A DNA stretch of 64,000 nt from Acidimicrobiia bacterium (lineage in GTDB: Bacteria; Actinomycetota; Acidimicrobiia; IMCC26256; PALSA-610), in NCBI GenBank assembly GCA_038202885.1, contig JBBREP010000007.1, positions 12,327 through 76,326 of the forward strand, written 5' to 3'. Shown one piece after another: positions 17,368 to 51,118 of this stretch. The position numbers and the translations under genes were made by a program. Below the pieces are notes generated by a model. The model saw only the letters and a program-made list of their open reading frames with translations, had not been told where the DNA came from and did not search any database. Position 1 is the stretch's first letter; every line of letters begins with the position of its first letter.

Positions 17368-18915
17368 TCAGCGGTTCTCTGGGAAGTTGAGATCGACGTC
17401 GCTTCGGTGCCCCTCGGGGGATTCGGCCGACTGCCCCTGGGGGCGCGTACCGGAGGCGAGCGGGGGTAGCGGCGCGCCCCACCGGCTCGTGACGACCTTG
17501 CCCCGCGTGTAGAACTGGACGCCTTCGGGTCCGTACATGTGCGTGTCACCAAACAGCGAGGCCTTCCAACCGCCGAAACTGTAGGCAGCTACCGGGACTG
17601 GAATCGCCACGTTCACGCCCACCATGCCGGCGCGCACGTCGAACTGAAATCGGCGCGCGGCGCCGCCGTCGCGCGTGTAGATCGCGGCGCCGTTCCCCCA
17701 CGGGTTGTCGTTGACGATCGCGAGCGCTTCGTCGAAGGAGCCGGCGCGCACCACGCACAACACGGGACCAAAGATCTCGTCGGTGTACACACGCATTGCG
17801 GTCGTGACGTGGTCGAGCAACGACACGCCGAGGAAGAAGCCACCACCATCAACGCGCAACGTGCGGCCGTCGACCACGACGGTCGCGCCTTGCGCCGCGG
17901 CCCCCTCGACGTAGGACGCCACCTTGTCGCGGTGCTCGCATGTGATGAGCGGGCCCATATCTGAATCGGGGTCGGTGCCGGGTCCGATGCGCAACGACGG
18001 GAGCCGTCGCGCGATCTCAGCGACAAGATCGTCCGCAATGTCGCCAACGGCGACGACCACAGACACCGCCATGCAACGCTCACCGGCGGAGCCGTACGCC
18101 GCGCTGATCGCGCCGTCGGCCGCCAGCGCGAGGTCGGCGTCGGGCATCACGACCATGTGGTTCTTGGCACCGCCGAGGGCCTGCACCCTCTTGCCGCGCG
18201 CCGTGCCCGTCTCGTACACGTACTGCGCGATGGGCGTGGAGCCGACGAAGCTCACGGCCTGGATCGTGGGGTGCTCCAGGATGCGGTCGACAGCCACCTT
18301 GTCGCCGTGCACCACGTTGCACACGCCGGCGGGAACGCCAGCCTCGTGCAGAACCTCGGCGAGGAACAACGCCGCGCTCGGATCCTTCTCGGAGGGCTTG
18401 AGGATGAACGTGTTGCCACACGCGATGGCGTTCGCCACCATCCACAGCGGCACCATCGCCGGGAAATTGAACGGCGTGATGCCGGCGACCACTCCAAGTG
18501 GCTGGCGGATGGAGTACACGTCGACGCCCGTGGCGACCTGCTCGCTGAAGCCGCCCTTCAGCAGTTGTGGCACACCGCACGCGAACTCGACATTCTCGAT
18601 CCCGCGCGCGATCTCGCCGAGTGCGTCGGAGGTGACCTTGCCATGCTCCGCGGTGATGATCGCGGCGAGTTCCTTGCGGCGCGCATCGAGCAACGCGCGC
18701 GCGCGGAACAGCACCTCGGCGCGGCGCGACAACGACGTAGCGCGCCATGCTCCGAAGGCCTCGGCCGCGCGATCGACGGCCGCGTCGACCTCGGCCACCG
18801 AAGCGAGGTCGACGGCGCCAGTCTGCTCGCCGGTCGCGGGGTCGAACACCGGGCTTGAGCGCCCCGATTCGCCGACGACCGAACGCCCCCCGATCCAATG
18901 GCTGATCCGTTGCAT
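17368..18915 (-). CDS. mmsA: CoA-acylating (methyl)malonate-semialdehyde dehydrogenase
   Basis: ITPFNFPAM, FVGST, GGAKNH, AGERCMA, EIFGP. Confidence 0.93.
   Translation of the reverse strand: MQRISHWIGGRSVVGESGRSSPVFDPATGEQTGAVDLASVAEVDAAVDRAAEAFGAWRATSLSRRAEVLFRARALLDARRKELAAIITAEHGKVTSDALGEIARGIENVEFACGVPQLLKGGFSEQVATGVDVYSIRQPLGVVAGITPFNFPAMVPLWMVANAIACGNTFILKPSEKDPSAALFLAEVLHEAGVPAGVCNVVHGDKVAVDRILEHPTIQAVSFVGSTPIAQYVYETGTARGKRVQALGGAKNHMVVMPDADLALAADGAISAAYGSAGERCMAVSVVVAVGDIADDLVAEIARRLPSLRIGPGTDPDSDMGPLITCEHRDKVASYVEGAAAQGATVVVDGRTLRVDGGGFFLGVSLLDHVTTAMRVYTDEIFGPVLCVVRAGSFDEALAIVNDNPWGNGAAIYTRDGGAARRFQFDVRAGMVGVNVAIPVPVAAYSFGGWKASLFGDTHMYGPEGVQFYTRGKVVTSRWGAPLPPLASGTRPQGQSAESPEGHRSDVDLNFPENR
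17433..17474 (+). repeat. Dispersed 42-bp repeat, copy A (inside the mmsA 3' end, antisense)
   Basis: GCCCCTGGGGGCGCGTACCGGAGGCGAGCGGGGGTAGCGGCG; 36/42 identical to copy B without gaps. Confidence 0.8.
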
Positions 18916-18972
18916 CGGCCCAGGTTAGACACCGAGGTCCGATCGACCACCAGCGTTCATTAGCGTGCGCCG

Positions 18973-19974
18973 GTGGACAATGCGCTCTCACCGTTTCTGG
19001 AGCTGTCGCGCGCCGAATGGGCGCGATTGCGTGCGAATACGCCGCTGACGCTCGATGAGGAGGAGCTCGTTGCGCTCCGTGGGGTCAACGAGTTCGTCGC
19101 GCTTGACGAGGTGCGCGACGTCTATCTCCCGCTGTCGCGACTGCTGAATCTGCGCGTGGCCGCCACCCAGCATCTTCACGAGGTCACGAGTGGGTTCCTC
19201 GGCGTGCTCACGCCGCGGGTGCCGTTCGTGATCGCCGTCGCCGGCAGTGTGGCGGTGGGCAAGAGCACGATCTCGCGCATTCTCCAGGCGCTCCTCGCTC
19301 GCTGGCCCGGCCATCCCAGTGTCGATCTGGTCACCACCGATGGGTTCCTGTATCCCAACGCCGAGCTCGAGCGCCGCGGACTGTTGACCCGCAAGGGCTT
19401 CCCAGAGAGCTACGACGTGCGCCGGCTGCGCGGCATGCTTGCCGACTTGAAGTCGGGCGCCGAGCGGGTTGAGGTGCCGCTGTATTCGCACATCACCTAC
19501 GACGTCGTGGCCGACGAGGTGATGACCATCTCACGCCCCGACATCGTGATCGTCGAAGGCATCAACGTCTTGCAGGTACCGCCGACAGGTGCGAGCGGGG
19601 GTGGAACCGCGAGCCCCTCGGGGCGCGAGCCGAAGGCGAGCGGGGGTGGAGGCGAGGCCACCGATCACGTGCACGTGTCGGACTACTTCGACTTTTCCAT
19701 CTACGTGGATGCAGTGGAGACCGACGTGGAGCAGTGGTATGTCGACCGCACGTTCGCGTTGCGCGAGGGCGCGTTCCAACAGCCCGATTCGTTCTTCCAC
19801 TTCCTCACGCCGCTCGGCGACGACCAGGTACGCGAGTTTGCGCACATGATCTGGAACACCATCAACGGCGTGAACCTGCGTGAAAACATCGCGCCCACGC
19901 GTTCGCGCGCCCATCTCATCTTGGAAAAGGGCCCGGACCACTCAGTACGCAGCGTCCGGCTCCGCAAACTCTGA
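18973..19974 (+). CDS. coaA: Type I pantothenate kinase
   Basis: [31 protein letters not shown]; Gly-rich insertion. Confidence 0.95.
19591..19654 (+). repeat. Dispersed repeat, copy B (in frame inside coaA) with 15-bp direct repeat
   Basis: GCCCCTCGGGGCGCGAGCCGAAGGCGAGCGGGGGTGGAGGCG at 19613-19654; GCGAGCGGGGGTGGA at 19591 and 19636 (period 45). Confidence 0.8.
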
Positions 19975-19993
19975 GTGTCCGCCGGCCGCTCGC

Positions 19994-20626
19994 TCAGGCC
20001 TGGGCGGTGCCCGCGTCGTCGCCGCGGATGCCTCGCAGGCCGAACCAGGCCAGCTCGGCGAGCCAGTGAGCGAGGCGCTCGGGGTCGGGATGCTCGTCGT
20101 GGTCGTCGCCCGCGATCGATCGCCTGCTGGTGGCCTCGGCGATGCCGACGATGGCGTGCGCGAGCACCGATCGATGATCGGGATCGACGGGTAGGTCGAT
20201 CAGCGTCTCGATGACGCGGGCGCCCTGTTCGAGCACGCGCTCGGCCCGCTCGGCAAACTCGGGGTCGTTGCGCACCGACGCACCGAACAGCAGGCGGAAC
20301 GCTGGCGGGTCGTCGCGCACGAACGCGAAGTAGGCGTTGAAACCGGCCTCGACCCTGGCGCGGCCGCTCATCCCCGGTTCGGCTGCAGCTGCAAGCTTCG
20401 TGAGCAGCCGCGCTCCCACATCGTCGAGCAGCTCGAGAAACAGCGCGCGCTTGTTCTGAAAATGTTGGTAGAGCACCGGCTTGGTGACACCCGCCGCGGC
20501 GGCGACATCATCCATCGACGTGGCGTGAAAGCCTCGTTCGGAGAACACCTCGCCGGCGACGTCGAGGAGTTGGCGGCGCCGTTGCTGGGCGGGCAGTCGC
20601 GTGCTGCGCGACGCGGCTGCGACCAT
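19994..20626 (-). CDS. TetR family regulator
   Basis: GFHATSMDDVAAAAGVTKPVLYQHF HTH. Confidence 0.93.
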   Translation of the reverse strand: MVAAASRSTRLPAQQRRRQLLDVAGEVFSERGFHATSMDDVAAAAGVTKPVLYQHFQNKRALFLELLDDVGARLLTKLAAAAEPGMSGRARVEAGFNAYFAFVRDDPPAFRLLFGASVRNDPEFAERAERVLEQGARVIETLIDLPVDPDHRSVLAHAIVGIAEATSRRSIAGDDHDEHPDPERLAHWLAELAWFGLRGIRGDDAGTAQA

Positions 20627-20628
20627 CC

Positions 20629-21636
20629 CTAGACGCTCGACTTCAAGGGCATCACGAAACGGTCATCGTGGTCGAAGTTGCGTGCGTACAAGTCGGCGAG
20701 CGCGCGGGCCTCGTCGGCCGTCAGCGCCAAATCGGACGCGGCCGCGTACTCACGCACCTCGTCGACAGTGACGACCGTCGGCAGCACGTTGGCGAACGCC
20801 GCATTGGCGAGGATCCCAGCGACGGCGGCTTGACCGATCGTCCGCCCCGTCTCAGGCGCCCACAAGAACGCGAGCGATTCGGCCTTCTCGAAGTTGTCGC
20901 GCATGTTGTCGCGGTTGCGGTGCGCTCGGTGATCGCCCGCCGGGAACACGGTGTCGATCGTGACCTTGCCCGACAACGAATCCGACGCGTGCGGCACGCG
21001 CGAGATCAGGCTGCAGTCGCCGCTCTGGACGCGTGGTTGGGCCGCGAACGTGAGGCCAGGCTCCTGTTCGAGCACGTTGAACACTGTCTGCAGCGTGCAG
21101 ATCGGACGATCGCGCACTGCTTCGATGCCTTCGGTGACCCAGCCGATGGCCGGTCCGAGCGCCACACCGATCTCGCGGATCTTGCCTTCGGCGCGCAAAC
21201 TCGCAAGCAGTTCCCACAGCGCGTCGTCGCGAATCGGGTCAATGCGCACGTTGTGGAGTTGGTAGAGGTCGATGTAGTCGGTGCCGAGCCGGCGCAGCGA
21301 CGCTTCGAGCTGATGGCGGATGGCATCGAGGCCGAAATCCTGCGGACGCTCGCGCTGGCCCGCCGGGCGCGGCGCGTCGATGTCGTAGCCGCACTTGGTG
21401 GTGAGCACGATCTCGTCACGATGGGTCGACAGGAGCGGCGCGAGCATCGTCTCGCCGATCCCGTCGTCGCCGTAGACGGGAGCCGTGTCGATGAAGTTGA
21501 TGCCGCAGTCGAGCGCGGCGTGCAGCATCGCTTGTGGGTCCTCGACGGCACCCCACCAGTTGCTCGCGAGCGTCCACGTACCGATCCCCACCTCGGAGAC
21601 CGTCAGGTCACTGGCACCAAAGCGGCGAAATCGCAT
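20629..21636 (-). CDS. Aldo/keto reductase
   Basis: FIDTAPVYG, TKCG, SLRRLGTDYIDLYQLH. Confidence 0.92.
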   Translation of the reverse strand: MRFRRFGASDLTVSEVGIGTWTLASNWWGAVEDPQAMLHAALDCGINFIDTAPVYGDDGIGETMLAPLLSTHRDEIVLTTKCGYDIDAPRPAGQRERPQDFGLDAIRHQLEASLRRLGTDYIDLYQLHNVRIDPIRDDALWELLASLRAEGKIREIGVALGPAIGWVTEGIEAVRDRPICTLQTVFNVLEQEPGLTFAAQPRVQSGDCSLISRVPHASDSLSGKVTIDTVFPAGDHRAHRNRDNMRDNFEKAESLAFLWAPETGRTIGQAAVAGILANAAFANVLPTVVTVDEVREYAAASDLALTADEARALADLYARNFDHDDRFVMPLKSSV

Positions 21637-21645
21637 CGCGGGATG

Positions 21646-21999
21646 TTACGGCCGGCCTTCGCCGTCCGCGGCACCGGGCGTAGGGCCGGAGTCGGGGCGT
21701 GCGGTCGTGCTCGACTGCTGCTTCGCGGCGCGCTCCTGGCGTTCTTCGCGCTCGGCCGCTCGGATCGCGTACCCGAACACGATGGCGCCTGGCAGCGCGA
21801 CACAACTCACCGCCAGGCCGATCGTCGCCGCGGTCACAGTCCAGGTCGGAAAGTCGGTGATGGCGCCGACCACGAACGCGAGGATCGCCGCGGCGAGTGC
21901 GCCGTACCCGATCCGTTTGCCGAGCACCACCCACGTGCGGATCAGGGTGCGGCGCCGGTCGACGGCATCGGGACTCGTTGTGGGTTCCACAGCACTCAT
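21646..21999 (-). CDS. Small 2-TM membrane protein
   Basis: ATGA overlap with folP; two hydrophobic helices; IVFGYAIRAAEREE. Confidence 0.7.
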   Translation of the reverse strand: MSAVEPTTSPDAVDRRRTLIRTWVVLGKRIGYGALAAAILAFVVGAITDFPTWTVTAATIGLAVSCVALPGAIVFGYAIRAAEREERQERAAKQQSSTTARPDSGPTPGAADGEGRP

Positions 22000-22958
22000 G
22001 TTGGCGTGGGCGCGATGCGTGCGTCCCACCGGAGTTCGGCCGCGAGGCCTGCGCCGCTTGCGAGTGGCTCGCGACCTTCGAGCACGTCGAGCACCGCGAG
22101 AAAGTCGCGCACGGCGGCGACGTCGTGCACGCGCAGCATCGACGACGGCGCCCGCGCGATCGCGTACGCGATCGCAGCGAGAGTTCCGGCGAGCCGTTCG
22201 CGCGGCGCTCGCCCTGTGATCACGCCAACGAAGTCCTTCCGCGACAGCGCGAGCAGCACTGGCCGTCCGAGTGCGGCGACATCGTCGAGCGCGCGCAGCA
22301 CCTCGACGGTCTGCGACGCGGTCTTGGAAAAGTCGGGTCCGGGATCCACGATCAACTGTTCGGATGCCACCCCAGCCGCTTCGAGTTCGGCGAGCCGCGT
22401 CGTGAGCAGATCGAGCACGTCGCCAGCTACGCCGCCGGGAACGTCGTCGTACAGCTCGCGCGCGTCTTCGCGCGTCTTTGGGCGCCAGCGCGTGTGCATC
22501 ACGACGAGCCCAGCGTTGTGCCGTGCGATGACGGCCGCGAGCGACGGATCGCACAGACCCGAGACATCGTTGATGATGTCGGCGCCCGCGCGCAGCACCG
22601 CGTCGGCAACGCCCGCGCGGTAGGTGTCGATGGAAATCACGCAGTCGCTCTCCCGTCGCAGCCCTTCGACGACGGGCAGCACCCTTTCCAACTCTTCATC
22701 AACGGTGATTTCGGGAACCCCCGTGATGGCCGATTGTCCCCCAATGTCGATGATGGTCGCACCATCGGCCACCAACGCGATCGAGCGGGCCACGCAGGCG
22801 TCGACCGAATCGAGGTCGCCACCGTCGGAGAACGAATCCGGCGTCGCGTTGACGACGCCCATGATCAGCGGCCGGTCGATCGTGATCTCACGATCGCGGC
22901 AGCGCAATCTGATCGAAGATGGGCTCGGATCGGATGGCATCGACGCTCGCGTGTTCAT
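21996..22958 (-). CDS. folP: Dihydropteroate synthase family (FolP2-like variant)
   Basis: GVVNATPDSFSDGG, SIDT, INDVSG, DPGPDFSK, SRKDF, LRVHDV. Confidence 0.85.
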   Translation of the reverse strand: MNTRASMPSDPSPSSIRLRCRDREITIDRPLIMGVVNATPDSFSDGGDLDSVDACVARSIALVADGATIIDIGGQSAITGVPEITVDEELERVLPVVEGLRRESDCVISIDTYRAGVADAVLRAGADIINDVSGLCDPSLAAVIARHNAGLVVMHTRWRPKTREDARELYDDVPGGVAGDVLDLLTTRLAELEAAGVASEQLIVDPGPDFSKTASQTVEVLRALDDVAALGRPVLLALSRKDFVGVITGRAPRERLAGTLAAIAYAIARAPSSMLRVHDVAAVRDFLAVLDVLEGREPLASGAGLAAELRWDARIAPTPT

Positions 22959-23992
22959 CGGTTGAGTCCCACGAACGTCAGCGCTTCGTCGATGCGCCAC
23001 GGCAGATCGGTAATGGAGAACGAGAGGCGTGCTCGGCGCAGGTTCACGTCGAGGAACCGCTCCGAGGGCCGGGCGAGGAACTTCACGAGCTCGGCGGGTT
23101 CGTCGAGTGCGAAGAAACGCAGACCGCACGCCTCGATCTCGCCGAGCACCGCAAACGCGCCGACCACGCAGGGTCGGCGCGCGATGACGGATTCGATCGC
23201 GGCGTCGCCGAAACGCTCCCAGGTCGAAGGCAGGAGCACGACATCGCACGCAGCGTAGGCATCGGCCATGGACGCGGCCGGTCCGATCGTCACCGGGACC
23301 GGGCACCGTTCGAGCAAGCGATGCACGAGCGGCGCGACGTCGTCATCAATAGGTCCACGAAGCCAGTACCGCAACGGCGTTGCAGGAAACATCGTGTGCA
23401 GGGTCTGCAGGTAGCGGATCGCGCCAGCCACGTTGGTGCGCTCACTCGCGCGCGATGGCTGGAAGAACACGATCTCGTCGTCGCCGAACCGCAGCGCGTC
23501 GCGCGTCGTTGCGCGATCTCCGGGTGGAGCATCGAGATCGAAATGATTGTGCACCGTCGACACCGGCGCGAACCCACGAGCGCGCAACTCGCGGCGCGAT
23601 CGCAAGTTGATCGTGGTGTGCAACGCGCCCGGCACCGCGAGCGGAAACTCGTTTGGTTCGTCGCCGTCGCTGTCGTATTCCCCGCCGGGTTGCCAGGGCA
23701 AGTCGTGATGGCGCAACACAACGCGTCCGCCGTGCGCGGCGAAGTCGGTGAGCGCGGCGGCAGCGGCACGGGCCCGCTCGCCATAGCGCGGGAGCGAACA
23801 CAGGTTGTCGACGATGACGAGGTCGCTCCCGGTGAGTGCATCCGAGAGTTCCTGCGCGTCGGCGAAGCGTCCGTCGCCACGACGGACAGCGAAGTCGAGT
23901 TCACCGAGTGCGGTCGCCCAGTGCGCCGACTGCGCGCCGATACCTCCATCGTCGTCGAGTGGATGCGAGAGCATCGTTGCGGTTCGCGCCAC
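22955..23992 (-). CDS. GT4-type glycosyltransferase
   Basis: DNLCSLP, HHDLPWQ, QPSR, PSTWERFG...E; GTG start 6 nt after TACCGT. Confidence 0.75.
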   Translation of the reverse strand: MARTATMLSHPLDDDGGIGAQSAHWATALGELDFAVRRGDGRFADAQELSDALTGSDLVIVDNLCSLPRYGERARAAAAALTDFAAHGGRVVLRHHDLPWQPGGEYDSDGDEPNEFPLAVPGALHTTINLRSRRELRARGFAPVSTVHNHFDLDAPPGDRATTRDALRFGDDEIVFFQPSRASERTNVAGAIRYLQTLHTMFPATPLRYWLRGPIDDDVAPLVHRLLERCPVPVTIGPAASMADAYAACDVVLLPSTWERFGDAAIESVIARRPCVVGAFAVLGEIEACGLRFFALDEPAELVKFLARPSERFLDVNLRRARLSFSITDLPWRIDEALTFVGLNR

Positions 23993-24143
23993 GTCGCGAC
24001 GGTATCGGCCCGGGGCTGACAGGCCTGGCTCGGCACGCTCGGTGGGACTCGCGCGCGCCAGCACCACTGTCCGTGAGAAACGTCGGATCCGACTGGGAAA
24101 ACCGTGGATTGAGGGGTTGCCAAGCGCCTCCACAATGCGCACA

Positions 24144-24222
24144 CTCCTTGGGCACGTGAGGGTGACGATCACAGCAGGTTGTGCGCGTCTCGGGTGGAGC
24201 CGGCCAACTCACGAGGAAGGGG
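24144..24222 (+). ncRNA. Candidate structured leader RNA
   Basis: CACAAT at 24131; nested pairings CTCCTT/AAGGGG, CGTGAG/CTCACG, GTGA/TCAC, GTTG/CAAC. Confidence 0.25.
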
Positions 24223-24339
24223 GAGCATCGAGGAACGCCACTGCGGACACGACGCCGGCGGCACGGTCGCGACCACTGCGACCAACGACCCTGCCGCGTA
24301 CGCCGTGCCCACGGTGCTGCCCGCAACGATGCCTTCGGC

Positions 24340-27731: not shown

Positions 27732-27788
27732 ATGCCCAACGGTACCGGCCGCGGGTGTGCGGACCGCGGCACCTCTACGATGCCGCGC

Positions 27789-30237: not shown

Positions 30238-30270
30238 GGGGGCGGCGGCGGGTCGCTACGCTCCCACGCC

Positions 30271-30489: not shown

Positions 30490-30493
30490 ACGA

Positions 30494-33367: not shown

Positions 33368-34063
33368 TTGGCCGTCGTCGCGCCCGTGGTACCCGTGGTC
33401 ACGACCCGAACGGCAGTGTGTGTGCTCGGTCGTTTTCCCGCTCTCGCGGGCGCCGACCTCGATGTCATGCCGGGTGAGATCGTGTTGTTGTCGGGGCCGA
33501 ACGGTGCTGGGAAGTCGACGTTGCTGCGCGTGCTCGCCGGTCTGTTGCCGTTGCGCAGTGGGTGGGCGACGGTGTTCGGCTGCGATTTGAACCTCGACCG
33601 TCGCAGTTTCCGGCGGCGGCTCGCGCTTGTGGGCCACGACACCGGGTGTTACGACGACCTCACCGCGCGCGAGAACCTGCGGTTCGCGCTGCGCGCCGCG
33701 GGTGCCGACGCGACGAACCTCGACGGCACGCTCGAACGGCTCGGTCTCGACACCGTGGCGCGCGTGCGTCACGCTGACCTGTCTGCGGGTCAGCGCCGCC
33801 GGCTCGCGTTGGCGATTGCCTTCGCACGCAACACCGAGATGCTGCTGCTCGACGAGCCCCACGCGGGCCTCGATGCCGACGGGCGCGCGCTCCTCGACGA
33901 TCTGTTGCGCGAGGCCGCGGCCGGGGGCCGCACTGTGGTGTTCGCGTCGCACGAGTTGGAGCGCGCCCGGGAACTCGCACACCGCGAAGTACTCGTGGAA
34001 CGCGGACTGTTGCACGGTGGCGTCCTGGAACCCGCCCCCGAACCCGTCGGCGCAGTGCCATGA
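33368..34063 (+). CDS. ccmA: Heme ABC exporter ATPase
   Basis: GPNGAGKST, LSAGQRRR, LLDEP; heads the ccm operon. Confidence 0.88.
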   Translation: MAVVAPVVPVVTTRTAVCVLGRFPALAGADLDVMPGEIVLLSGPNGAGKSTLLRVLAGLLPLRSGWATVFGCDLNLDRRSFRRRLALVGHDTGCYDDLTARENLRFALRAAGADATNLDGTLERLGLDTVARVRHADLSAGQRRRLALAIAFARNTEMLLLDEPHAGLDADGRALLDDLLREAAAGGRTVVFASHELERARELAHREVLVERGLLHGGVLEPAPEPVGAVP

Positions 34064-34104
34064 GCGCCTGGGGGCGCGAGCGCAGGCGAGCGGGGGAGGA
34101 GGTG
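34064..34104 (+). repeat. Dispersed repeat, copy C (ccmA-ccmB junction)
   Basis: GCGCCTGGGGGCGCGAGCGCAGGCGAGCGGGGGAGGAGGTG directly after ATGA; its end is the AGGAGGT SD of ccmB. Confidence 0.8.
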
Positions 34105-34111: not shown

Positions 34112-34789
34112 ATGAATAGCTTGCTTTCCGAGGCGCTGCTCGTCGCGGGCAAGGATCTGCGGATCGAGGCGCGGGCCAAGGTCGGCTTGGCCCAGATCCT
34201 GCCGTTCGGCGCGCTCGTGCTCCTGCTGTTCGCGTTTGCGCTCGACCCGCACCGGGGCTTGCTCCCGACCGTCGCACCCGGGCTGTTCTGGATCGCGGTG
34301 CTGCTCGCCTCGATCCTGGCCGTGGGCCGCAGCTTTGCCATCGAGTCCGAGCACAACGCCCGCGACGGTCTGCGCCTCGCCGGGCTCGACGGTGCCGCCA
34401 TCTTCCTCGGCAAGGCCGCGGCCATCGCGCTCGAACTTCTCGCGCTCGAGGTGTTGTTGCTCATCGGCACGTTCGTGCTCTATGACGTGTCGGTGCGAGG
34501 CATGGTGGCACTCGTGCCGACCGCGCTGGCCGCCACCTGCGGGATCGCCGCCACCGGTACGGTGTACGGAATCCTTGCGGCGGGGCTGCGCATGCGGGAG
34601 ACGCTCGTGCCGTTGCTCGTATTACCGATCAGCGCGCCCGTGATGCTCGGCGCCACCAGGGCGTTCGAGGCTGCGCTCGACGGCAATACGAGCGAAGCTT
34701 GGCCTTGGGTGCAGCTCCTCGTGGTGTTCGCGGCGGTGTACTTGACCGTCGGCGTGTTGGCCTTCGGGCCGTTGCTGGAGGAAGCATGA
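34112..34789 (+). CDS. ccmB: Heme exporter permease
   Basis: KDLRIE.R, PGLFW, LVPLLVLPI..P; about 6 TM. Confidence 0.9.
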   Translation: MNSLLSEALLVAGKDLRIEARAKVGLAQILPFGALVLLLFAFALDPHRGLLPTVAPGLFWIAVLLASILAVGRSFAIESEHNARDGLRLAGLDGAAIFLGKAAAIALELLALEVLLLIGTFVLYDVSVRGMVALVPTALAATCGIAATGTVYGILAAGLRMRETLVPLLVLPISAPVMLGATRAFEAALDGNTSEAWPWVQLLVVFAAVYLTVGVLAFGPLLEEA

Positions 34790-39401: not shown

Positions 39402-39404
39402 GCC

Positions 39405-40223: not shown

Positions 40224-40233
40224 GGAGCCCACG

Positions 40234-40710: not shown

Positions 40711-40724
40711 ACAACGCACCGCAT

Positions 40725-41636: not shown

Positions 41637-41661
41637 GAACGCAGTCCTCGGCGAAAACGAT

Positions 41662-41729
41662 AGTCAACTGAAGTGGTCGACAAAGTAGACAACATGGGTA
41701 CGAGGAAAGTCAAGTGCTTTGGTCGACAA
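41662..41729. promoter_or_regulatory. Two candidate Rrf2 operator boxes
   Basis: AGTCAACTGAAGTGGTCGACAA (41662-41683) and AGTCAAGTGCTTTGGTCGACAA (41708-41729), 18/22 identical. Confidence 0.6.
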
Positions 41730-41758
41730 GCGCGAGGATGTGACCAAGGAGGTTCGGC

Positions 41759-42816: not shown

Positions 42817-42836
42817 TCAAACGGCGCGAGCGGCGA

Positions 42837-42881
42837 CCATTGGTACTTGGCTTGCAATAGTTACGCCTCAAGTACCAATGG
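42837..42881. repeat. 13-bp perfect inverted repeat
   Basis: CCATTGGTACTTG-N19-CAAGTACCAATGG. Confidence 0.85.
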
Positions 42882-42919
42882 ACGCGCTGCCGCGGCGGTC
42901 CGCCCGTAGGATCAGCGTT

Positions 42920-43612: not shown

Positions 43613-43616
43613 CGCC

Positions 43617-44171
43617 ATGGGCATAGCGATCATCCTCATCGTCATCTTCGTCGTGGTCGCGCTCGTGCCGTTGTTCGTGTTCAACGGTCTTGTGCGGGCG
43701 CGCAACCTCGTCACGAACTCATGGGCGCTGGTCGACACCGAGCTGCAACGCCGCCACGATCTCGTGCCCAATCTCGTCGCGACCGTCAAGGGCTACGCGG
43801 CGCACGAACAAGGAGTGTTCGACGCGCTCACCAAGGCTCGAGCCGATGCGGTGGCAGCCGGACCCGACGCGGCGCAACGCACCGAGAGTGAGACCGCACT
43901 CGTCGGTGGGCTCGGCCGACTCTTCGCAGTCGCTGAGGCCTACCCGGATCTCAAAGCGAACGAGGAGTTCCTCGCGCTCCAGCGTCAACTCGTCGACACC
44001 GAGGACCGCATCGCGGTGGCCCGGCGCGTGTACAACGCGAACGTGCGCGACTACAACACGCGGATCCAGTCGTTCCCTGGCCTGGTGTTCGCTGGAAGCG
44101 GCCGCTTCGCCGTGGCGGCGCCGTTCGACGTGGGCGAGAGCATCCGCAACGAGGCGCCTCCAGCCGTGTGA
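43617..44171 (+). CDS. lemA: LemA family protein
   Basis: ELQRRHDLVPNLV.TVKGY, EAYPDLKA, ARRVYN. Confidence 0.93.
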   Translation: MGIAIILIVIFVVVALVPLFVFNGLVRARNLVTNSWALVDTELQRRHDLVPNLVATVKGYAAHEQGVFDALTKARADAVAAGPDAAQRTESETALVGGLGRLFAVAEAYPDLKANEEFLALQRQLVDTEDRIAVARRVYNANVRDYNTRIQSFPGLVFAGSGRFAVAAPFDVGESIRNEAPPAV

Positions 44172-44191
44172 GCCGGCCTCCCGGCCCCGAG

Positions 44192-44226
44192 TTGTCAAGG
44201 TGGCGCAATACAAGTACGATACAAGT
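44192..44226 (+). promoter_or_regulatory. Sigma-70 promoter with ATACAAGT direct repeats
   Basis: TTGTCA-N17-TACGAT, 6 nt before GTG; ATACAAGT at 44208 and 44219. Confidence 0.7.
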
Positions 44227-44970
44227 GTGATGCGGTATCTCGAAGTGGCCGACAACCTGCGCGAGCGACTCGCGCGGGGCGAGGTCGCCGCCGGCGGGGC
44301 CCTGCCCTCGGAAGCCGAGATCGGCGCCGAGTGCGGCGCCAGCCGGGTCACGATACGCCGCGCCCTGGAACAGCTGCGCGGCGAAGGGCTCGTGACGAGC
44401 CGGCGGGGGAGTGGCTGGTTCGTCGCCCACGACCCGGTGCGTCAAGCGCTCGGGAGGGTCACCACCGTCGAGGCCGCGCTCGAGGCCGCCGGCGCGCGCC
44501 CCGAGCGGTACGTACTCGAGTTTGCGTTCGAAGCGGCGTCGGCCGTGGTCGCCGAGGCCCTCGGACTCGCGCGCGACGCCGAGGTGTTGCGAGTGCTTCG
44601 TCTCAACCTCGCCGACGGCGAACCGTTCGCGCTCGTGACGGTGTGGGTCCCCGGCGAACTTGGCCACTACTTGTCGCGCGCCGAAGTCGAGGTCGCCACG
44701 TTTTACGACCTGCTGCCGTTGCGGGGTGTCGCGCTCGGCCGCGCCGTGCAACAAATCGGCGCGGACATCGCGTCGGCCGACGACGCCCGCCACCTCCATG
44801 TGGCCAAGGGGTCGGCCGTGCTCACCGCTCGGCGCATCACGAACGATTGCTCGGGCAACCCCGTGATCTTCTCGTTGCACCGCTATCCCGCGCACCGCAC
44901 CTCGATCGAGATCGAGCTGCCGTCGCTAGCCTTCGAAACCGCCACCCACACTGGAGCCCGTCATGGCTGA
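44227..44970 (+). CDS. GntR family regulator with UTRA domain (HutC subfamily)
   Basis: LPSE, SRVTIRRAL, G.GWFV; UTRA-like C-terminus. Confidence 0.92.
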   Translation: MMRYLEVADNLRERLARGEVAAGGALPSEAEIGAECGASRVTIRRALEQLRGEGLVTSRRGSGWFVAHDPVRQALGRVTTVEAALEAAGARPERYVLEFAFEAASAVVAEALGLARDAEVLRVLRLNLADGEPFALVTVWVPGELGHYLSRAEVEVATFYDLLPLRGVALGRAVQQIGADIASADDARHLHVAKGSAVLTARRITNDCSGNPVIFSLHRYPAHRTSIEIELPSLAFETATHTGARHG

Positions 44971-47251
44971 TCAACAAGCACACGTAGGACCAAGCACGCC
45001 CGCCTCGCTCGTGCAACACGCGTACGAACGACTGGCGAGCAGCGCAACCGTTGCGCGCGAACGACTCGGACGACCGATCACGTTCGCCGAGAAGGTGTTG
45101 TTCGGCCACGCCGACAACGTGGCCACGATCGGCCTCGGGCGCGGTGTCGACTACAGCGACTATCGCCCCGACCGCGTTGCGATGCAAGATGCCACGGCGC
45201 AAATGGCGCTCCTCCAGTTCATGCTCGCGAAGATGCCGAGCACGGCCGTGCCCACCACGGTGCACTGCGACCACCTCATCCAGGCTCGCGTGGGCGCCGC
45301 CGCCGATATGAAGGTGGCGCTCGACATCAACAGCGAGGTCTACGACTTCTTGCGCACGGTTTCGGCGAAATACGGCATCGGTTTTTGGAAGCCGGGCAGC
45401 GGCATCATCCACCAGGTCGTGCTCGAGAACTACGCCTTCCCGGGCGGGATGATGATCGGCACCGACTCGCACACTCCCAACGCCGGCGGGCTCGGCATGG
45501 TGGCGATCGGTGTGGGCGGCGCCGACGCGGTCGACGTGATGGCGGGGTGGCCCTTCAACACACGCGTGCCCAAGCTGATTGGTGTGCACCTCACCGGCTC
45601 GCTGTCGGGATGGGCCGCACCCAAGGACATCATCTTGAAGGTCGCCGGCATCCTCACGGTGAAGGGTGGCACCGGTGCCATCGTCGAGTACTTCGGTCCC
45701 GGCGCCGAATCGATCAGCGCCACCGGCAAGGCAACGGTGTGCAACATGGGCGCCGAGATTGGTGCGACGTGCTCGGTGTTCGCCTACGACGCGCACACCG
45801 CGCAATACCTGAAGGCGACGCGCCGCGAGGACCTCGCTGATCTGGCTGACCGTTACGCCGAACTCTTGCGCAACGACGCCGAGGTGACCGCCGACCCCGA
45901 GCGTTACTACGACCGGGTGATCGAGATCGATCTTTCTGAACTCGGACCGCACCTCGTTGGTCCGCACACGCCCGACCTCGACCGTCCGATTGGCGACATG
46001 GCGGCGGCGGTGCGGGCTGAGGGCTACCCCGTCGAGATCAGTTCCGCCCTCGTCGGTTCGTGCACGAACTCCTCCTATGAGGACATCGGTCGTGCGGCGA
46101 ACATCGCGCGCCAAGCTTCGGCGAAGGGCATGCGTGTGAAGACACCGTTGCTCATCACGCCCGGTTCGGAGCAGGTGCGCGCCACGATCGAGCGCGACGG
46201 TCTGCTTGCCGACCTCGAGGCGATCGGCGCGACTGTGCTCGCCAACGCGTGTGGCCCGTGCATCGGTCAATGGCAGCGCGACGACGTGCCGAAGGGCACG
46301 CGCAACACGATCGTGTCGAGTTTCAACCGCAACTTCCCGGCCCGTAACGACGGCAACAAGGAGACGTTGTCGTTCATCGGGTCACCCGACACGGTCGTCG
46401 CCTTGGCGCTGAGCGGCCGACTCGACTTCGATTTCACGAGCCAGCCACTGGTGGCACCCGACGGTTCCGAAGTGCGCCTCGAAGCGCCTTTTGCCGACGA
46501 TCTGCCGTCGCGGGGCTTCGATCAGGGTGCCTCGGGCTTTGTTCCGCCTGCGGCCGATCCCGACGCGGTCACGGTCGTGGTGGCGCCCGGTAGCGACCGT
46601 CTCGAACTCCTCACGCCGTTCGCGGCCTGGGACGGCCGTGACTTCGCCGGTCTGCGCGTCTTGCTCAAGGCCAAGGGAAAGTGCACGACCGACCACATCT
46701 CGCCTGCCGGCCCATGGCTCACCTACCGGGGTCACCTCACCAACATCTCGGGCAACATGTTCCTCGGTGCGAACAACGCCTTCGCTGACAAGGAGCCCGG
46801 GCTCGGTGTCGACGTGCGTGACGGTTCGGTCAAGGCATTGCCCGAACTCGCGCGTGAGTACAAGGCCGCGGGCATCGCGTGGCTCGCGGTCGGCGACGAG
46901 AACTGGGGTGAAGGCTCGTCGCGCGAGCACGCCGCCATGGAACCGCGGTACATGGGCTGCAAGGCGATCCTCGTGCGATCCTTCGCCCGCATTCACGAAG
47001 CCAACCTGAAAAAGCAAGGTGTGCTGCCGCTGACGTTTGGCGACCCGGCCGACTACGACAAGGTGCAGGTCGACGACACGGTCGATGTCACCGGACTCGC
47101 GGCCCTCGCTCCGGGTTCGCAGATCACGGTGGTGCTGCACCACGCTGATGGCAGTCACGACGACGTGGTGTGCAACCACACGATGAGCGACGAGCACATC
47201 GGCTGGTTCCGAGCCGGTTCGGCGCTCAACTTGCTGGCCACCAGGACCTGA
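44963..47251 (+). CDS. Aconitate hydratase, mitochondrial-type
   Basis: DRVAMQDATAQMA, HCDH, TDSHT, GSCTNSSYED, ACGPCIGQW, GEGSSREHAA; 762 aa. Confidence 0.93.
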   Translation: MADQQAHVGPSTPASLVQHAYERLASSATVARERLGRPITFAEKVLFGHADNVATIGLGRGVDYSDYRPDRVAMQDATAQMALLQFMLAKMPSTAVPTTVHCDHLIQARVGAAADMKVALDINSEVYDFLRTVSAKYGIGFWKPGSGIIHQVVLENYAFPGGMMIGTDSHTPNAGGLGMVAIGVGGADAVDVMAGWPFNTRVPKLIGVHLTGSLSGWAAPKDIILKVAGILTVKGGTGAIVEYFGPGAESISATGKATVCNMGAEIGATCSVFAYDAHTAQYLKATRREDLADLADRYAELLRNDAEVTADPERYYDRVIEIDLSELGPHLVGPHTPDLDRPIGDMAAAVRAEGYPVEISSALVGSCTNSSYEDIGRAANIARQASAKGMRVKTPLLITPGSEQVRATIERDGLLADLEAIGATVLANACGPCIGQWQRDDVPKGTRNTIVSSFNRNFPARNDGNKETLSFIGSPDTVVALALSGRLDFDFTSQPLVAPDGSEVRLEAPFADDLPSRGFDQGASGFVPPAADPDAVTVVVAPGSDRLELLTPFAAWDGRDFAGLRVLLKAKGKCTTDHISPAGPWLTYRGHLTNISGNMFLGANNAFADKEPGLGVDVRDGSVKALPELAREYKAAGIAWLAVGDENWGEGSSREHAAMEPRYMGCKAILVRSFARIHEANLKKQGVLPLTFGDPADYDKVQVDDTVDVTGLAALAPGSQITVVLHHADGSHDDVVCNHTMSDEHIGWFRAGSALNLLATRT

Positions 47252-47255
47252 TAAC

Positions 47256-47310
47256 CCGACCGTTTGCCGCTCCGGCGGCACGGGCGACGGTCAGATCGGC
47301 ACACGGTCGG
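47256..47310. terminator. Hairpin between convergent genes
   Basis: CCGACCGTTTGCCG / CGGCACACGGTCGG, 14 bp with 1 mismatch; no U-tract. Confidence 0.5.
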
Positions 47311-47337
47311 CTCCGATGTTCCCAACGGGTGCGAGAC

Positions 47338-48450
47338 TTACGCGCGCAGGTCGCGCAGCCTTGTGACGACGTCGGCGAACGCCTTGGCGAAGTGATCCAC
47401 GTCCGCGTCGGTCGACGACCACCCCACCGAAACACGCAACGAGTGTTGGGCATCCACACCCATCGCGACCAGCACGGGCGACGGCTCCCATGCTTCGGAT
47501 GAACACGCCGAACCTGAATGCACCGCCACGCCGCGCTGGTCGAGTCCGAGCAGAATCGGTTCGGCCTCGACGCCCCGAACACCCAGGCAGACGACATGCG
47601 GGACCGAGCCTTCGGGTGAGGTGTCACCGAACTGCTCGACCCCGTCGACCGCGTTCGTAGCCGCGCGGAGCCGCTCCGTGAGGCGTCGCTCGTGCGCAGC
47701 TTCGGTGTCGAGCACGATCGCCGAGCACGCCGCGCCGAAACCGACGCACGCAGCAACGTTCTCGAAGCCGCCGCGCCGGGCGCGTTCCTGGGCGCCACCC
47801 ACGACAAAGGGTGCAATGCGCAGCCCGCGGCGCACGAGCAGCGCAGCCGCGCCGGGTGGGCCGCCGAGCTTGTGCGCGGTCACCGAGCACAGATCGGCGC
47901 TGAGCGCAGAGAATGACAGGGCCACATGGCCGGCGGCGGCGCACGCGTCGACGTGCACGCGGGCGCCGTGGGCGCGCAGGACCGCGGCGATTTCGGCCAC
48001 AGGCTGGATCGTGCCCACCTCGTGGTTCGCGAGCTGCACGCTCACCAGCGCGGTGTCGTCGCGCACGGCTGCGACCACATCGGCGGCGCTGACTCGTCCG
48101 TGATGATCGACACCAACGACCGTGCAGTCGGCCTCGGCCCGGTCGAGCGCGTCGCGCACCGCCGAGTGCTCGACTTCCGTGGTCACGACGTGTGCGCCGG
48201 GTGCGACCCACCAGTGTGCGGCGTTGATCGCCTCGGTGCCCGACGAACAGAACACGACCTCACGTGGTCGGGCGCCAAGGAACGCCGCTACTTGTTCGCG
48301 TGCCGTCTCCAACGCAACGCGCGTCACGCGCCCTTCCGCGTGTAAGCGACCAGGGTCGCCGGGTGCGTCGCGCAACAGTTCGAGCATCGCCTCGAACGCG
48401 GCGGGGCGGATCGGTGTGGATGACGCGTGGTCGAGGTACGCGCGGGCCAT
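47338..48450 (-). CDS. iscS: Cysteine desulfurase (IscS/NifS type)
   Basis: YLDHAS, ANHEVG, TAHKLGGP, SGSACSS. Confidence 0.9.
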   Translation of the reverse strand: MARAYLDHASSTPIRPAAFEAMLELLRDAPGDPGRLHAEGRVTRVALETAREQVAAFLGARPREVVFCSSGTEAINAAHWWVAPGAHVVTTEVEHSAVRDALDRAEADCTVVGVDHHGRVSAADVVAAVRDDTALVSVQLANHEVGTIQPVAEIAAVLRAHGARVHVDACAAAGHVALSFSALSADLCSVTAHKLGGPPGAAALLVRRGLRIAPFVVGGAQERARRGGFENVAACVGFGAACSAIVLDTEAAHERRLTERLRAATNAVDGVEQFGDTSPEGSVPHVVCLGVRGVEAEPILLGLDQRGVAVHSGSACSSEAWEPSPVLVAMGVDAQHSLRVSVGWSSTDADVDHFAKAFADVVTRLRDLRA

Positions 48451-48477
48451 GGTCGTGCTTCGTCAGCGGCGCTTGGG

Positions 48478-49185
48478 TCAGACGCGCGTCACGCAGTGGT
48501 GGTCGCCGTCGGGCCGCGATGCCGTGATCGTCGGCTGCGTCGCGCCGTAGAGGCCTTCGAGCATGCCGCGGATCATGCCGGTGTCGACCGCGCACAGTAC
48601 GTGTGGATACTGCTGCGCAGCCTCGCCGAACGGGCATTGTTCCTGCACGAGCTGCAACACGTTGCCCCGCGATTCGGAATGGGCTGCGAAGCCGTGCGCG
48701 GTCAGTGCGTCGGCGACCGAGGACACCGCGGCCTTCACCGAGCGGTGGCCTTCGGCTGGGTCCATGCGCAACGCGAGCGCGCGCCCGTATTCGTAGCCGA
48801 CCTCTTCGGCGAGCGCACTCGCCTCGTCGCGCGGGAGGCGTCCGAGGGCACGGGCGAGCAACATGCCGAGCAGATCGTCGCGCCGGGGCGGGAACGACAA
48901 CTGCGACGCCGTGTCGGCCGCGAGGTAGATCTTCGACGGCCGTCCCGCGGATTCGTGGCGGGCCATCTCGACGCGTACGTAGCCCCCGCCCGCGAGCTTT
49001 TCGAGGTGATGGCGCGCCACATTGGGGTGCAAAGAAAAGTGCTCCGCAACCTCGGCCGCACGGACTCCGTCGGGCGAGCTGCGCACGAGCAGATAGATGT
49101 CTCGGCGGGTCGGGTCGCCAAACGCCGCGGTCACGGCCATGACGGCTGCCGTGAATTCGTCCGGAGTGAGGTCCGCCGCAGGCAC
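48478..49185 (-). CDS. HTH regulator with C-terminal Cys (SufR/ArsR-like)
   Basis: HPNVARHHLEKL, GRP; CPF...LC.VD...HC. Confidence 0.8.
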   Translation of the reverse strand: MPAADLTPDEFTAAVMAVTAAFGDPTRRDIYLLVRSSPDGVRAAEVAEHFSLHPNVARHHLEKLAGGGYVRVEMARHESAGRPSKIYLAADTASQLSFPPRRDDLLGMLLARALGRLPRDEASALAEEVGYEYGRALALRMDPAEGHRSVKAAVSSVADALTAHGFAAHSESRGNVLQLVQEQCPFGEAAQQYPHVLCAVDTGMIRGMLEGLYGATQPTITASRPDGDHHCVTRV

Positions 49186-49230
49186 CCCGGTATTGTACCT
49201 ATGTCGATAGTGGAAATCCCCGGGAGCGAT

Positions 49231-50070
49231 ATGGCCGCCAGTGACGGACCGGCGACCCCGCCGATCCAACGTGAGAACCCCTTTGAGTCGAACCGCACCC
49301 GGATCCTCGCGATCTCGAGCGGCAAGGGGGGCGTGGGCAAGAGTTCGGTCACGGCGAACCTGTCGATCGCGTTGGCCCAGCTGGGCCACAAGGTTGCGGC
49401 GATCGACGCCGATGTGTGGGGCTTCTCGATGCCGAGGATGCTCGGGATCACGCATGGCCCAGAGGTCGTCGACGAGGTCATCCAACCGCCATCGGCCCAC
49501 GGCGTACACCTCATCTCGATGGGCTTTTTCGCCCGGGAGGACCAGCCCGTCGTGTGGCGCGGGCCCATGCTGCACAAGGCCCTCAGCCAGTTCCTCACCG
49601 ATGTGGAGTGGGGCGACCCCGACTTCCTCGTGGTCGACATGCCGCCGGGCACGGGTGATGTGGCCATCTCGATGGCGCAGTTCCTGCCCCGCGCCGAGGT
49701 GATTGTGGTGACCACACCGCAGATCGCGGCCCAGAAGGTGGCCCAACGTGCTGCCTACATGGCCGAGAAGGTGAACCTCTCGGTGATCGGCGTGATCGAG
49801 AACATGTCGTGGTTCACGTGCGAGCACGGCGGGCGCTACGAGATCTTCGGTGGCGGCGGTGGTCAAGAGCTGGCCGATGCACTGAAGGTGCCACTGCTCG
49901 GCCAGGTGCCACTCGTGTCAGAGCTGCGCGAGGGGAGCGACGAAGGTCGCCCGATCGTGGCGCATAACCCCGACTCCGAGGCGAGCCTGGCGATCAAGGC
50001 CATTGCGTTGAAGGTTGCCGAAGAACTCGCGCCCAAGCGCATCTACCGTCCCGAGCTCAAGATCATCTAA
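49231..50070 (+). CDS. mrp: Mrp/NBP35 (ApbC) Fe-S carrier ATPase
   Basis: SGKGGVGKSS, WRGPM, DMPPGTGD, ENMS. Confidence 0.92.
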   Translation: MAASDGPATPPIQRENPFESNRTRILAISSGKGGVGKSSVTANLSIALAQLGHKVAAIDADVWGFSMPRMLGITHGPEVVDEVIQPPSAHGVHLISMGFFAREDQPVVWRGPMLHKALSQFLTDVEWGDPDFLVVDMPPGTGDVAISMAQFLPRAEVIVVTTPQIAAQKVAQRAAYMAEKVNLSVIGVIENMSWFTCEHGGRYEIFGGGGGQELADALKVPLLGQVPLVSELREGSDEGRPIVAHNPDSEASLAIKAIALKVAEELAPKRIYRPELKII

Positions 50071-50106
50071 CCAAGACGTGATCGGCCCACCGGTAGCGTC
50101 GTCGCC

Positions 50107-51072
50107 ATGGGTCCAGAGCCGGGTTGGCTTGAGCAGCGCCTGCTGTTCTTCACCGGCAAGGGCGGCACCGGCAAGAGCACCATCGCGGCTGCGACCGCGC
50201 TGCTCGCGGCGCAGCACGGGCGACGCGTGCTGCTCGTCGACGTCGATGCAAAGGGTTCGTGCGCGCGGCTGCTCGAACACGACGATGTCGGCTACGCCCC
50301 AGTCGTTGTGCAACCCGGCGTCTCCGCGATGGCGATGGACACCGAACGGTCGTTGCGCGAATACCTCAAGCTGCACCTGCGCGTTCCTGTTGTGGGCCGC
50401 ATTGGTCCGCTCGCGCGCGCCTTCGAATTCGTGGCGACTGCCGCGCCGGGCGTCAAGGAAATCCTCACGATCGGCAAGATCGTGTGGGAGGTCCGTGAGG
50501 CGATCGAAGGTCGGGCCGACCACGACATCGTGATCGTCGACGCAGCCGCGAGTGGCCATGTCGTGGCGCAGCTGGCCGCGCCGCAGACGATCCGCGACCT
50601 GGCCGACGTCGGGCCGTTGCGAGCCCAGACCGACTGGATGCTCGAGTTGCTGTCGGACGGCGCGATCACATCGGTCAACATTGTGACCACGCCCGAAGAG
50701 ATGCCGGTCGCCGAGACGATCGAGCTCGTCGATCGGATTCGCACCGAAACGCAGGTACATCTCGGCGCCATTGTGGTGAATCGCGTGCTTCCTGAGCTGT
50801 TCACGCGGCGTGACGAGGTGACGTTCGATGCGTTGCGCGACGAACCGATCGTCGCTCAGCTTGCCGGCGCGGTCGGGCCGGGTGTCGGCGCGGTGCTTGC
50901 GGGCGCTCGGCTCGCGGTCACGCTGCGCCGCACGCGCGCCGAACACCTCGACCGGTTGCGCGCCGCGGTGACGTCGCCACTGTTGTTCGTGCCGTATCAA
51001 TTCGGTGGCCAACAGGGTGTGCGCACGACGCGCCGCATCGCCGAATCGCTCGGCGAGGAGCTCGGGCTATGA
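50107..51072 (+). CDS. ArsA/GET3-like ATPase (Rv3679-like)
   Basis: TGKGGTGKST, APGVKEIL..GK, DAAASGH, PEEMPV.E. Confidence 0.88.
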   Translation: MGPEPGWLEQRLLFFTGKGGTGKSTIAAATALLAAQHGRRVLLVDVDAKGSCARLLEHDDVGYAPVVVQPGVSAMAMDTERSLREYLKLHLRVPVVGRIGPLARAFEFVATAAPGVKEILTIGKIVWEVREAIEGRADHDIVIVDAAASGHVVAQLAAPQTIRDLADVGPLRAQTDWMLELLSDGAITSVNIVTTPEEMPVAETIELVDRIRTETQVHLGAIVVNRVLPELFTRRDEVTFDALRDEPIVAQLAGAVGPGVGAVLAGARLAVTLRRTRAEHLDRLRAAVTSPLLFVPYQFGGQQGVRTTRRIAESLGEELGL

Positions 51073-51118
51073 GCCCCCAGGGGCGCGAACGGCGTATCTC
51101 CGACGGGTCCAGGATGAG
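51069..51118 (+). repeat. Dispersed repeat, partial copy D at the ATGA junction
   Basis: ATGAGCCCCCAGGGGCGCGA; second ATGAG 45 nt later. Confidence 0.55.

Follow-up and report, generated by a model that had tools for sequence, protein, structure and literature searches.

A short interspersed repeat inside core enzymes and at operon junctions of an uncultured actinobacterial genus

We analyzed a 64-kb window, the whole stretch of DNA under study here, which is part of contig C7 of the draft genome G000 (4.11 Mb, 67% G+C, 229 contigs); this genome belongs to an uncultured actinobacterial genus, of which G001 and G002 are the two sister species. The window contains copies of a short G-rich repeat, some within the coding sequences of conserved enzymes and some at the junctions of coupled genes. 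An original prediction, made from the letters of the window, had placed four such copies (A to D), had likened them to mycobacterial interspersed repetitive units (MIRUs) and Rickettsia palindromic elements (RPEs), and had proposed an element that adds peptide loops to core enzymes. We found all four copies at the places proposed, copy C being one base short and copy D reduced to a 13-nt remnant, and the translations offered for the MmsA end and the CoaA insert proved correct.

The repeat in the window and the anatomy of its unit

The features of the window are collected in Table 1, together with loci elsewhere that are referred to below. The name mmsA is a label given in the original prediction from sequence alone, and the name coaA is based on matches to PDB structures and orthologues. 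Copy A is translated, antisense, within the last codons of mmsA, and the protein ends ...RWGAPLPPLASGTRPQGQSAESPEGHRSDVDLNFPENR. An independent unitig of sequencing run X1 covers positions 17405-18160, copy A included, with 0 differences; no listed run piece bridges copy B. In coaA, the 15-nt direct repeat described in the prediction was recovered with a period of 45, at 19591-19605 and 19636-19650. The predicted pairs of ATGA were likewise found, at 34060-34063 and 34112-34115 around copy C, whose inner stem is one base short, and at 51069-51072 and 51114-51117 around copy D. A search of the window with the consensus pattern returned copy A (17433-17466, 0 mismatches) and copy B (19613-19646, 1 mismatch), against an expectation of 0.00 from 100 shuffles. 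Two short tandem repeats in the window, at 53798-53850 (15 nt, 3.3 copies) and 3044-3090 (24 nt, 2.0 copies), are unrelated.

Table 1. Positions of repeat copies, host genes and related loci (window positions unless a contig or record is named).
Feature	Position	Strand	Remarks
mmsA-like aldehyde dehydrogenase gene	17368..18915	-	Copy A in last 36 codons; from open reading frame, translation and synteny
Partial unit GCCCCTCGGGGG beside copy A	17409..17420	+	Inside the G000-only insertion that holds copy A
Copy A, full unit	17433..17474	+	Antisense to mmsA; translated within MmsA C-terminal tail
coaA, type I pantothenate kinase	18973..19974	+	Insertion in loop after NVLQ strand
Partial unit (3' end of unit) ahead of copy B	19591..19605	+	With copy B, 63-nt insertion, ~1.5 units
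Copy B, full unit	19613..19654	+	Sense, in frame in coaA
Mini-ORF through copy C, 20 codons	34060..34119	+	ATG overlaps upstream stop (ATGA); TAG overlaps downstream start (ATGAATAG); from three-frame translation
Copy C, unit at operon junction	34064..34104	+	Sense to both genes
Empty site	44563..44580	.	Unit in both G001 and G002, none in G000
Copy D, 13-nt remnant GCCCCCAGGGGCG	51073..51085	-	Directly behind upstream stop
Target-duplication loci	G000:C70:7196-7236; L080:17541-17583 (same place as L052:5541-5583); L004:1376-1405		Two include the upstream gene's stop codon
Records from other phyla	L015, L021, L024, L029, L031, L035, L050 (Burkholderiales/Betaproteobacteria); L009 (Rhodobacterales)		Intergenic, identical 27-nt core

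Repeat units are 39-42 bases long. An alignment of the 50 best units, which are near-identical over the whole consensus and have fairly constant ends, gave the 39-nt consensus GCCCCTSGGGG-CGCGAGCC-GMA-GGCGAGCG-GGGGTGGA. We read its order as a C-run, a short loop, a G-run, a putative inner hairpin (CGC-GA-GCC / GMA loop / GGC-GA-GCG), a second G-run, and TGGA. The inner 19 nt could form two blocks of three pairs each, the first of G-C or C-G pairs, with a tandem G.A/A.G between them and the GMA loop at the tip, and in the minimum-energy RNA fold of the sense strand this hairpin is enclosed by CCCC:GGGG. Loops of the GNA type give very stable DNA mini-hairpins. In the inner stem, a compensated C-to-G/G-to-C swap occurs in 7 units at 5 loci and a compensated one-base deletion, affecting both arms, in 5 units at 2 loci; the recurrence of such variants at separate loci fits copying from variant masters. 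Rfam returned no family for the window at gathering thresholds and, for five loci of the repeat, only two weak plant-miRNA matches (E 0.09 and 0.14) caused by an inverted pair.

The unit amounts to 13 codons, none of its reading frames contains a stop, and the antisense frames are open too. It occurs singly or in direct tandem arrays (four units on C196; two each on C48, C62, C41, C10, and C29), in which units abut with linkers of 3-7 nt that are constant inside one array. All 7 array periods within genes are 42 or 45, and the periods outside genes are 41, 41, 42, 43, and 46 (1/5 a multiple of three).

A genome-wide family with filled and empty sites

The original prediction had called for a genome-wide search for further copies, with nhmmer or short-word BLASTN, and all of its proposed checks came out in its favor. 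A strict regular expression retrieved 25 copies from G000, and nhmmer, run with a profile built from those 25, returned 52 units (E<0.01) at 39 loci on both strands. Four of the loci come within 140 nt of a contig end, so the counts are to be read as minima. We then ran Pfam searches with translations of the open frames surrounding each of the 39 loci. At 12 loci (11 genes), domain or orthologue matches continue in the same frame on both sides of the repeat; nine further loci are probably inside genes, supported on one side or by an open frame only, and the remaining eighteen are at junctions, gene ends, or between genes. The firm host genes encode CoaA, the MmsA tail, GuaA, an E1 dehydrogenase (Transketolase_C), a GH2 beta-galactosidase (LacZ, TIM barrel), a luciferase-like monooxygenase, DnaE, ApbE (two units), a family III CoA-transferase (two), an AMP-binding enzyme (four), and an Acyl_transf_3 protein (two). 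The dnaE gene is split across contigs (G000:C200:3-43 and G000:C100:24-65), each of which ends in a repeat unit, the assembly having broken inside this in-gene array. The commonest encoded peptide is PSGREP(Q/K)ASGGG, found at 11 loci.

Every firm in-gene insertion is a multiple of three and open in frame. Programmed translational bypassing, of which the mitochondrial 'byp' elements are a case, was ruled out on these grounds. Gene-internal copies are oriented in the sense of the gene at 19/19 loci, the two antisense cases being C-terminal tails (MmsA and the luciferase-like gene on C31), and 30/38 assignable loci are sense to the nearest gene; binomial tests give p 1.5e-5 (17/17 sense) and 5e-4 (30/38), for loci that are not independent. 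The sense bias hints at selection or at a mechanism tied to RNA or transcription.

At operon junctions the repeat has a recurring layout, and the ATGA stop/start context noted for copies C and D was found again at other copies. At three loci (C4:64067, C7:46385, which is copy C, and C60:19137) an ATG or GTG overlapping the upstream stop begins an ORF of 19-20 codons; this mini-ORF runs through the unit, and its own stop overlaps the start of the next gene. Variants of this arrangement are seen on C82, where the unit comes just after the ATGA-coupled start of argininosuccinate lyase, and at C9:41462, where it ends 6 nt ahead of an ATGA-coupled start. Copy C has NTGA on both sides where G001 has a single GTGA, and the same holds at C4 and C60; the two NTGA copies are not identical (ATGA vs GTGA), and the pattern that four-base direct repeats would leave could equally come from selection for coupling.

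The window is syntenic with G001 and G002, with alignments that break at the repeats, and comparison of orthologous sites shows the copies to be insertions. Between the three species, DNA identity in orthologous genes is just 68-83%, while the dispersed units are near-identical. As the prediction had anticipated, the residues that CoaA and MmsA have in excess coincide with the repeat. In CoaA, 21 residues (63 nt, ~1.5 units) were added in a loop after the NVLQ strand; they are absent in 15/15 aligned orthologues, both sister species included, and the DNA of coaA shows a 63-nt gap in G001, G002, and G014. Solved pantothenate kinases in the PDB align to CoaA residues 4-201 and 231-332 and have 9 residues where the query has a 29-residue loop. 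In an AlphaFold2 model of CoaA (mean predicted local distance difference test score, pLDDT, 79), scores fall below 50 in a single stretch, residues 202-236, which is the insert; the flanks are at ~90. The MmsA tail carries ~60 extra nt (20 residues), made of a partial and a full unit in antisense, in G000 only; they are absent in G001 and G002. The four-unit array of the AMP-binding enzyme adds 55 residues that are missing in 4/4 orthologues, and GuaA has 13 additional residues, absent from its three closest orthologues, from one clean insertion of exactly 39 nt. Both sister species, too, are without these two insertions. We also observed that this GuaA (G000:C21:26976-28553, L083; compared with L111-L115) is 84-87% identical to proteins of three other genera and 64-65% identical to those of the two other genomes of its own genus, and that the match in G001 is split in two pieces, a pattern that suggests a different paralogue, gene transfer, or a misbinned contig.

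Junction sites vary between the species in the same way. At the site of copy C, G001 is empty, the single GTGA joining stop and start, and G002 is filled by a longer variant. At the site of copy D, G001 is again empty and G002 carries a full unit in reverse, on both sides of which stands a direct duplication of 21-23 nt that takes in the stop of the gene. A fifth site, E (window ~44570), is filled in G001 and G002 and empty in G000. None of the five comparable window sites is filled in all three species. A census of the sister genomes by crude ORFs was set aside and its numbers are not used here: it scored the intergenic site D as 'inside a gene', and it is unreliable because the repeat is open in every frame and numerous shadow frames are open too.

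To follow the family beyond G000 we scanned genomes with the 27-nt core of the unit, allowing up to 2 mismatches and using the reversed core as a control. All three genomes of the genus contain it many times (37 matches in G000, 94 in G001, which is one contig of 4.6 Mb, and 41 in G002), and in G001 as many as six of the matches follow one another. Three other genera contribute four genomes (G012, G014, G055, and G062) with 1-5 matches each, bringing the total for the family to 7/63 genomes; the other 56/63 have 0 matches, as do 16 genomes from other families of the order, and the reversed core has 0 matches in all genomes scanned. The exact core was found in 55 stretches, whose carriers include uncultured Acidimicrobiia and Actinomycetes genomes. 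At L034, L040, and L049, loci of a one-contig relative, we saw arrays of five to seven units, some pairs of arrays lying only 0.6-2 kb apart, with periods of 41 and 43 besides 42; L008 holds a 41-bp array of 2.9 copies. On the metagenome contigs L133, L136, and L142 a conserved stretch of ~35 nt with a degenerate half-unit (GCGAGCGGAGCGAGCG) precedes actinobacterial-type units, a layout suggesting that another lineage has a longer, composite unit of ~80 nt. Run X2, from a microbial-mat metagenome of another study, contains units of the family that match window 19591-19651 with 1-3 differences over 36-61 nt in other contexts, and one of these contexts shares its linker with G000 contig C107.

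A core shared between phyla, and how the repeat may spread

One Rhodobacterales isolate record and five genomes of Burkholderiales or Betaproteobacteria also have the exact 27-mer. These carriers have 5-11 copies each (at most 3 mismatches), and among relatives of one Burkholderiales carrier 17/41 hold the core, with up to 27 copies. Outside the actinobacteria the repeats have a different 5' hairpin, CCCCCCTGAYAAGGGGGG, and match no Rfam family. In 5/8 loci the Burkholderiales form follows a stop codon at a distance of ~30 nt, in the orientation of the gene; often a T run comes after it, in the manner of a terminator. Of 25 stretches obtained in a metagenome scan, 16 are of the Burkholderiales type and 9 of the actinobacterial type, and a T run follows directly in 9/16 of the former. 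Exact-27-mer scans detect only the most conserved copies. At the third stem pair, 96 matches from Burkholderiales relatives, counted by eye, divide into 26 C...G, 32 T...A, 36 T...G, and 2 C...A (Fisher p=1.3e-4, not a true probability because the copies are related). This covariation (CGC..GCG, CGT..ACG, CGT..GCG) supports a predicted hairpin. The 27-nt identity between phyla cannot be chance, and horizontal spread of the hairpin module would be its simplest reading.

We consider it probable that the repeat is a new, lineage-specific, non-autonomous interspersed element of this uncultured actinobacterial genus, similar to MIRUs and RPEs. A few master variants would be copied and pasted to fresh sites, where slippage may later extend a copy into a tandem array, the period of which is 42 or 45 within genes. 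Because the unit has 13 codons, the in-gene periods are multiples of three, and no frame contains a stop, every insertion would keep the frame of its host. Each would add a Gly/Ser/Pro-rich, probably disordered loop (mostly PSGREPxASGGG), and copies would survive, presumably as neutral additions, in surface loops and tails of core enzymes. At junctions, the survivors would be those that sit on an NTGA stop/start overlap, where the mini-ORF may keep translational coupling as it does in MIRUs.

Several observations weigh against this reading. No candidate for an enzyme of transposition was detected: the Y1_Tnp domain of RAYT proteins (PF01797) has 0 matches in 5 genomes, the one-contig G001 included, in a search whose control matched 6/14 known genomes; the TnpB domain is likewise absent from 5/5 genomes; and reverse transcriptase (RVT_1) was found in 0/3 genomes of the genus. 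There is no regular target duplication, flanking repeats being at background in ~100/111 loci. Gene-internal copies are all sense though the antisense frames are open, a bias that pure neutral tolerance does not predict. The folding energy of single units, as DNA or as RNA, is no better than that of shuffles (z -0.3 to +1.3), so that support for the structure comes from covariation only, and 6 units have an uncompensated one-base stem deletion, in one arm only. Sites C and D are common to G000 and G002, but site E to G001 and G002, which requires at least one clean loss or one parallel insertion. Finally, the strong conservation of the unit could mean function instead of youth. Other searches for a means of spread gave ordinary ORFs only between pairs of nearby repeat clusters (seven loci, from the ORF listing), 0 exact core matches in viral contigs, and no blastn match in plasmids; of 12 Y1 matches in Burkholderiales carriers, 8 were examined as loci, and the core lies within ~1.5 kb of none. 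Three independent loci do have direct target duplications, of 20, 23, and 29 nt, on both sides of the unit (Table 1).

The sense bias and the conserved core invite the view that the repeat is a selected functional module, either an mRNA hairpin that serves coupling, transcript processing, or stabilization, or a protein-binding site, and that it spread by the benefit it confers. Such a module would fit the orientation of the copies (30/38 sense to the nearest gene and 19/19 within genes), the preservation of stop/start overlaps by the junction mini-ORFs, the conservation of the core across phyla, and the covariation in Burkholderiales, which allows T.G but not C.A (2/96), as RNA pairing would. 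However, about half of the loci are inside enzymes of unrelated pathways with no common regulatory role apparent, the sites are not conserved between sister species, copies decay (copy D being a 13-nt remnant), and there is no match to an Rfam family; we regard selection for such a module as an unlikely origin of the family. Enzyme-free template switching during replication or repair, in which the hairpin stalls the fork and the nascent strand copies the unit elsewhere through microhomology before returning, strikes us as somewhat more doubtful still. It agrees with the failure to find a transposase or a regular target duplication, with partial units that often lie beside full ones, and with the GNA-type loop, given the stability of such loops. 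A strand returning upstream of its point of departure should also leave occasional long flanking duplications of variable length, such as those of 20, 23, and 29 nt. Yet the GuaA insertion is a clean 39 nt without duplication or evident microhomology, unit ends are fairly constant, DNA fold energies are unremarkable, and the process does not predict a strand bias relative to genes.

That the whole pattern is a chance G-rich resemblance or an artefact of assembly or binning is hardly credible. The draft is in 229 contigs, some of which break in the repeat, with four loci within 140 nt of a contig end; but shuffling predicts 0 matches and the reversed control has 0, three assemblies contain the family, among them one that consists of a single 4.6-Mb contig, a separate unitig set has copy A unchanged, and insertions keep the frame in 11 genes. 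Beyond the lineage-specific interspersed repeat that we favor, a broader picture can be entertained tentatively, as a possibility with the odds against it: the hairpin with its G-run flanks (GGGG-CGYGAGCC-GNA-GGCGARCG-GGGG) may be a mobile structural module of Actinomycetota, Burkholderiales, and Rhodobacterales, moved by an agent other than known transposases. In one genus this module would have turned into a frame-neutral cassette of 13 codons that inserts in the sense of transcription and is actively remodeling loops in essential enzymes (DnaE, GuaA, CoaA).

Comparison with known repeat systems

A search of the literature on Acidimicrobiia repeats gave nothing relevant among the matches listed (supplements lay outside its scope); the comparison here is with systems of other bacteria. 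The passages on MIRUs in PMC3184786 describe repeats of 40-100 bp at tens of loci per genome, dispersed and in tandem, between the genes of operons, with a small ORF whose ends overlap the neighboring genes, empty sites in relatives, a four-base repeat, and no known transposase. The present repeat resembles these MIRUs in size (unit 39-45, array periods 41-46), in its 52 units at 39 loci, dispersed and in tandem, and in its position between operon genes, with a mini-ORF overlapping the neighbors at three junction loci and variants at C9:41462 and C82; it also shares the empty sites in relatives and the lack of a transposase among our matches, and the NTGA on both sides may be a further likeness. 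It differs in belonging to another phylum-level lineage, there being no Mycobacterium record among the 55 stretches with the exact core (exact 27-mers only), and in that about half of its loci are inside coding sequence, which the same passages of PMC3184786 do not describe for MIRUs.

In-frame insertion into genes is the property of RPEs, which reviews name as its outstanding case (PMC10969869). The account of them there is of many in-frame insertions into unrelated metabolic genes, encoding a conserved peptide thought to be compatible with the host fold, by elements of ~105-150 bp in an obligate intracellular alphaproteobacterium, and by that account they do not undergo tandem amplification (PMC10969869). 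The repeat studied here likewise inserts repeatedly and in frame into unrelated conserved genes, at 12 loci (11 genes). Unlike RPEs as portrayed in that account, it has a unit of 39 nt, forms in-gene arrays of up to four units, is also found at operon junctions, and lives in a free-living GC-rich actinobacterium.

Membership of the REP/RAYT, MITE (miniature inverted-repeat transposable element), and CRISPR systems was considered and rejected, the defining tests having failed. With REP/REPIN-RAYT systems the repeat shares the form of a short GC-rich hairpin in tens of copies, often just behind genes; but there is no Y1 transposase in 5/5 genomes, the arrays are direct tandems rather than inverted doublets, and with 12 firm and 9 probable of 39 loci inside genes it is not extragenic. 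MITEs (ERIC, BOX, Correia, and Nezha among those named) are characterized in the relevant passages of PMC10969869 and PMC3184786 as small and non-autonomous, and sometimes fused in frame with genes. In contrast to them, our unit is much shorter, shows no regular target duplication, and has ends (GCCCC... and ...GGTGGA) that do not repeat one another in inverted form. CRISPR arrays differ in that our units abut with 3-7 nt linkers and have no unique spacers of similar length. The Burkholderiales form, behind stop codons, sense, and with T runs, recalls terminator-type repeats such as SPRITE, a name that appears in a table of PMC3184786, whereas the actinobacterial form is without a T run and inside genes. 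PARCELs, as summarized in PMC2996958, are tandem coding repeats with dyad symmetry and a patchy distribution suggesting horizontal transfer. These features recur here, but PARCELs are described in that summary as 25-residue amphipathic domains in ORFs of unknown function, not as short cassettes in conserved enzymes (PMC2996958).

These comparisons bear on several wider questions. Such repeats break short-read assemblies, as with dnaE across two contigs here, and, being open in every frame, they can lead gene callers astray. Rickettsia offers the best-known case of a repeat that often colonizes housekeeping enzymes in frame, and a 2002 paper, by its title, calls this 'unique but recurrent' there. 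A second independent case in a free-living, GC-rich soil lineage indicates that in-frame colonization of housekeeping enzymes is not tied to reductive intracellular genomes. The combination of a MIRU-like junction layout, coding insertions, and tandem growth in genes provides a natural series on the tolerance, and perhaps the use, of added disordered loops, and the strict sense orientation in genes, the identical core in distant phyla, and the absence of a known transposase make the mechanism of spread a testable question. The original prediction's analogy with MIRUs and RPEs, drawn for an element that adds peptide loops to core enzymes, is supported as a likeness of layout and neither of sequence nor of membership; it had missed that the repeat forms tandem arrays within genes, that the copies have a strand bias, and that other phyla have an identical core. 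We conclude that the element works in a MIRU-like way at junctions and in an RPE-like way in genes and is a member of neither family.

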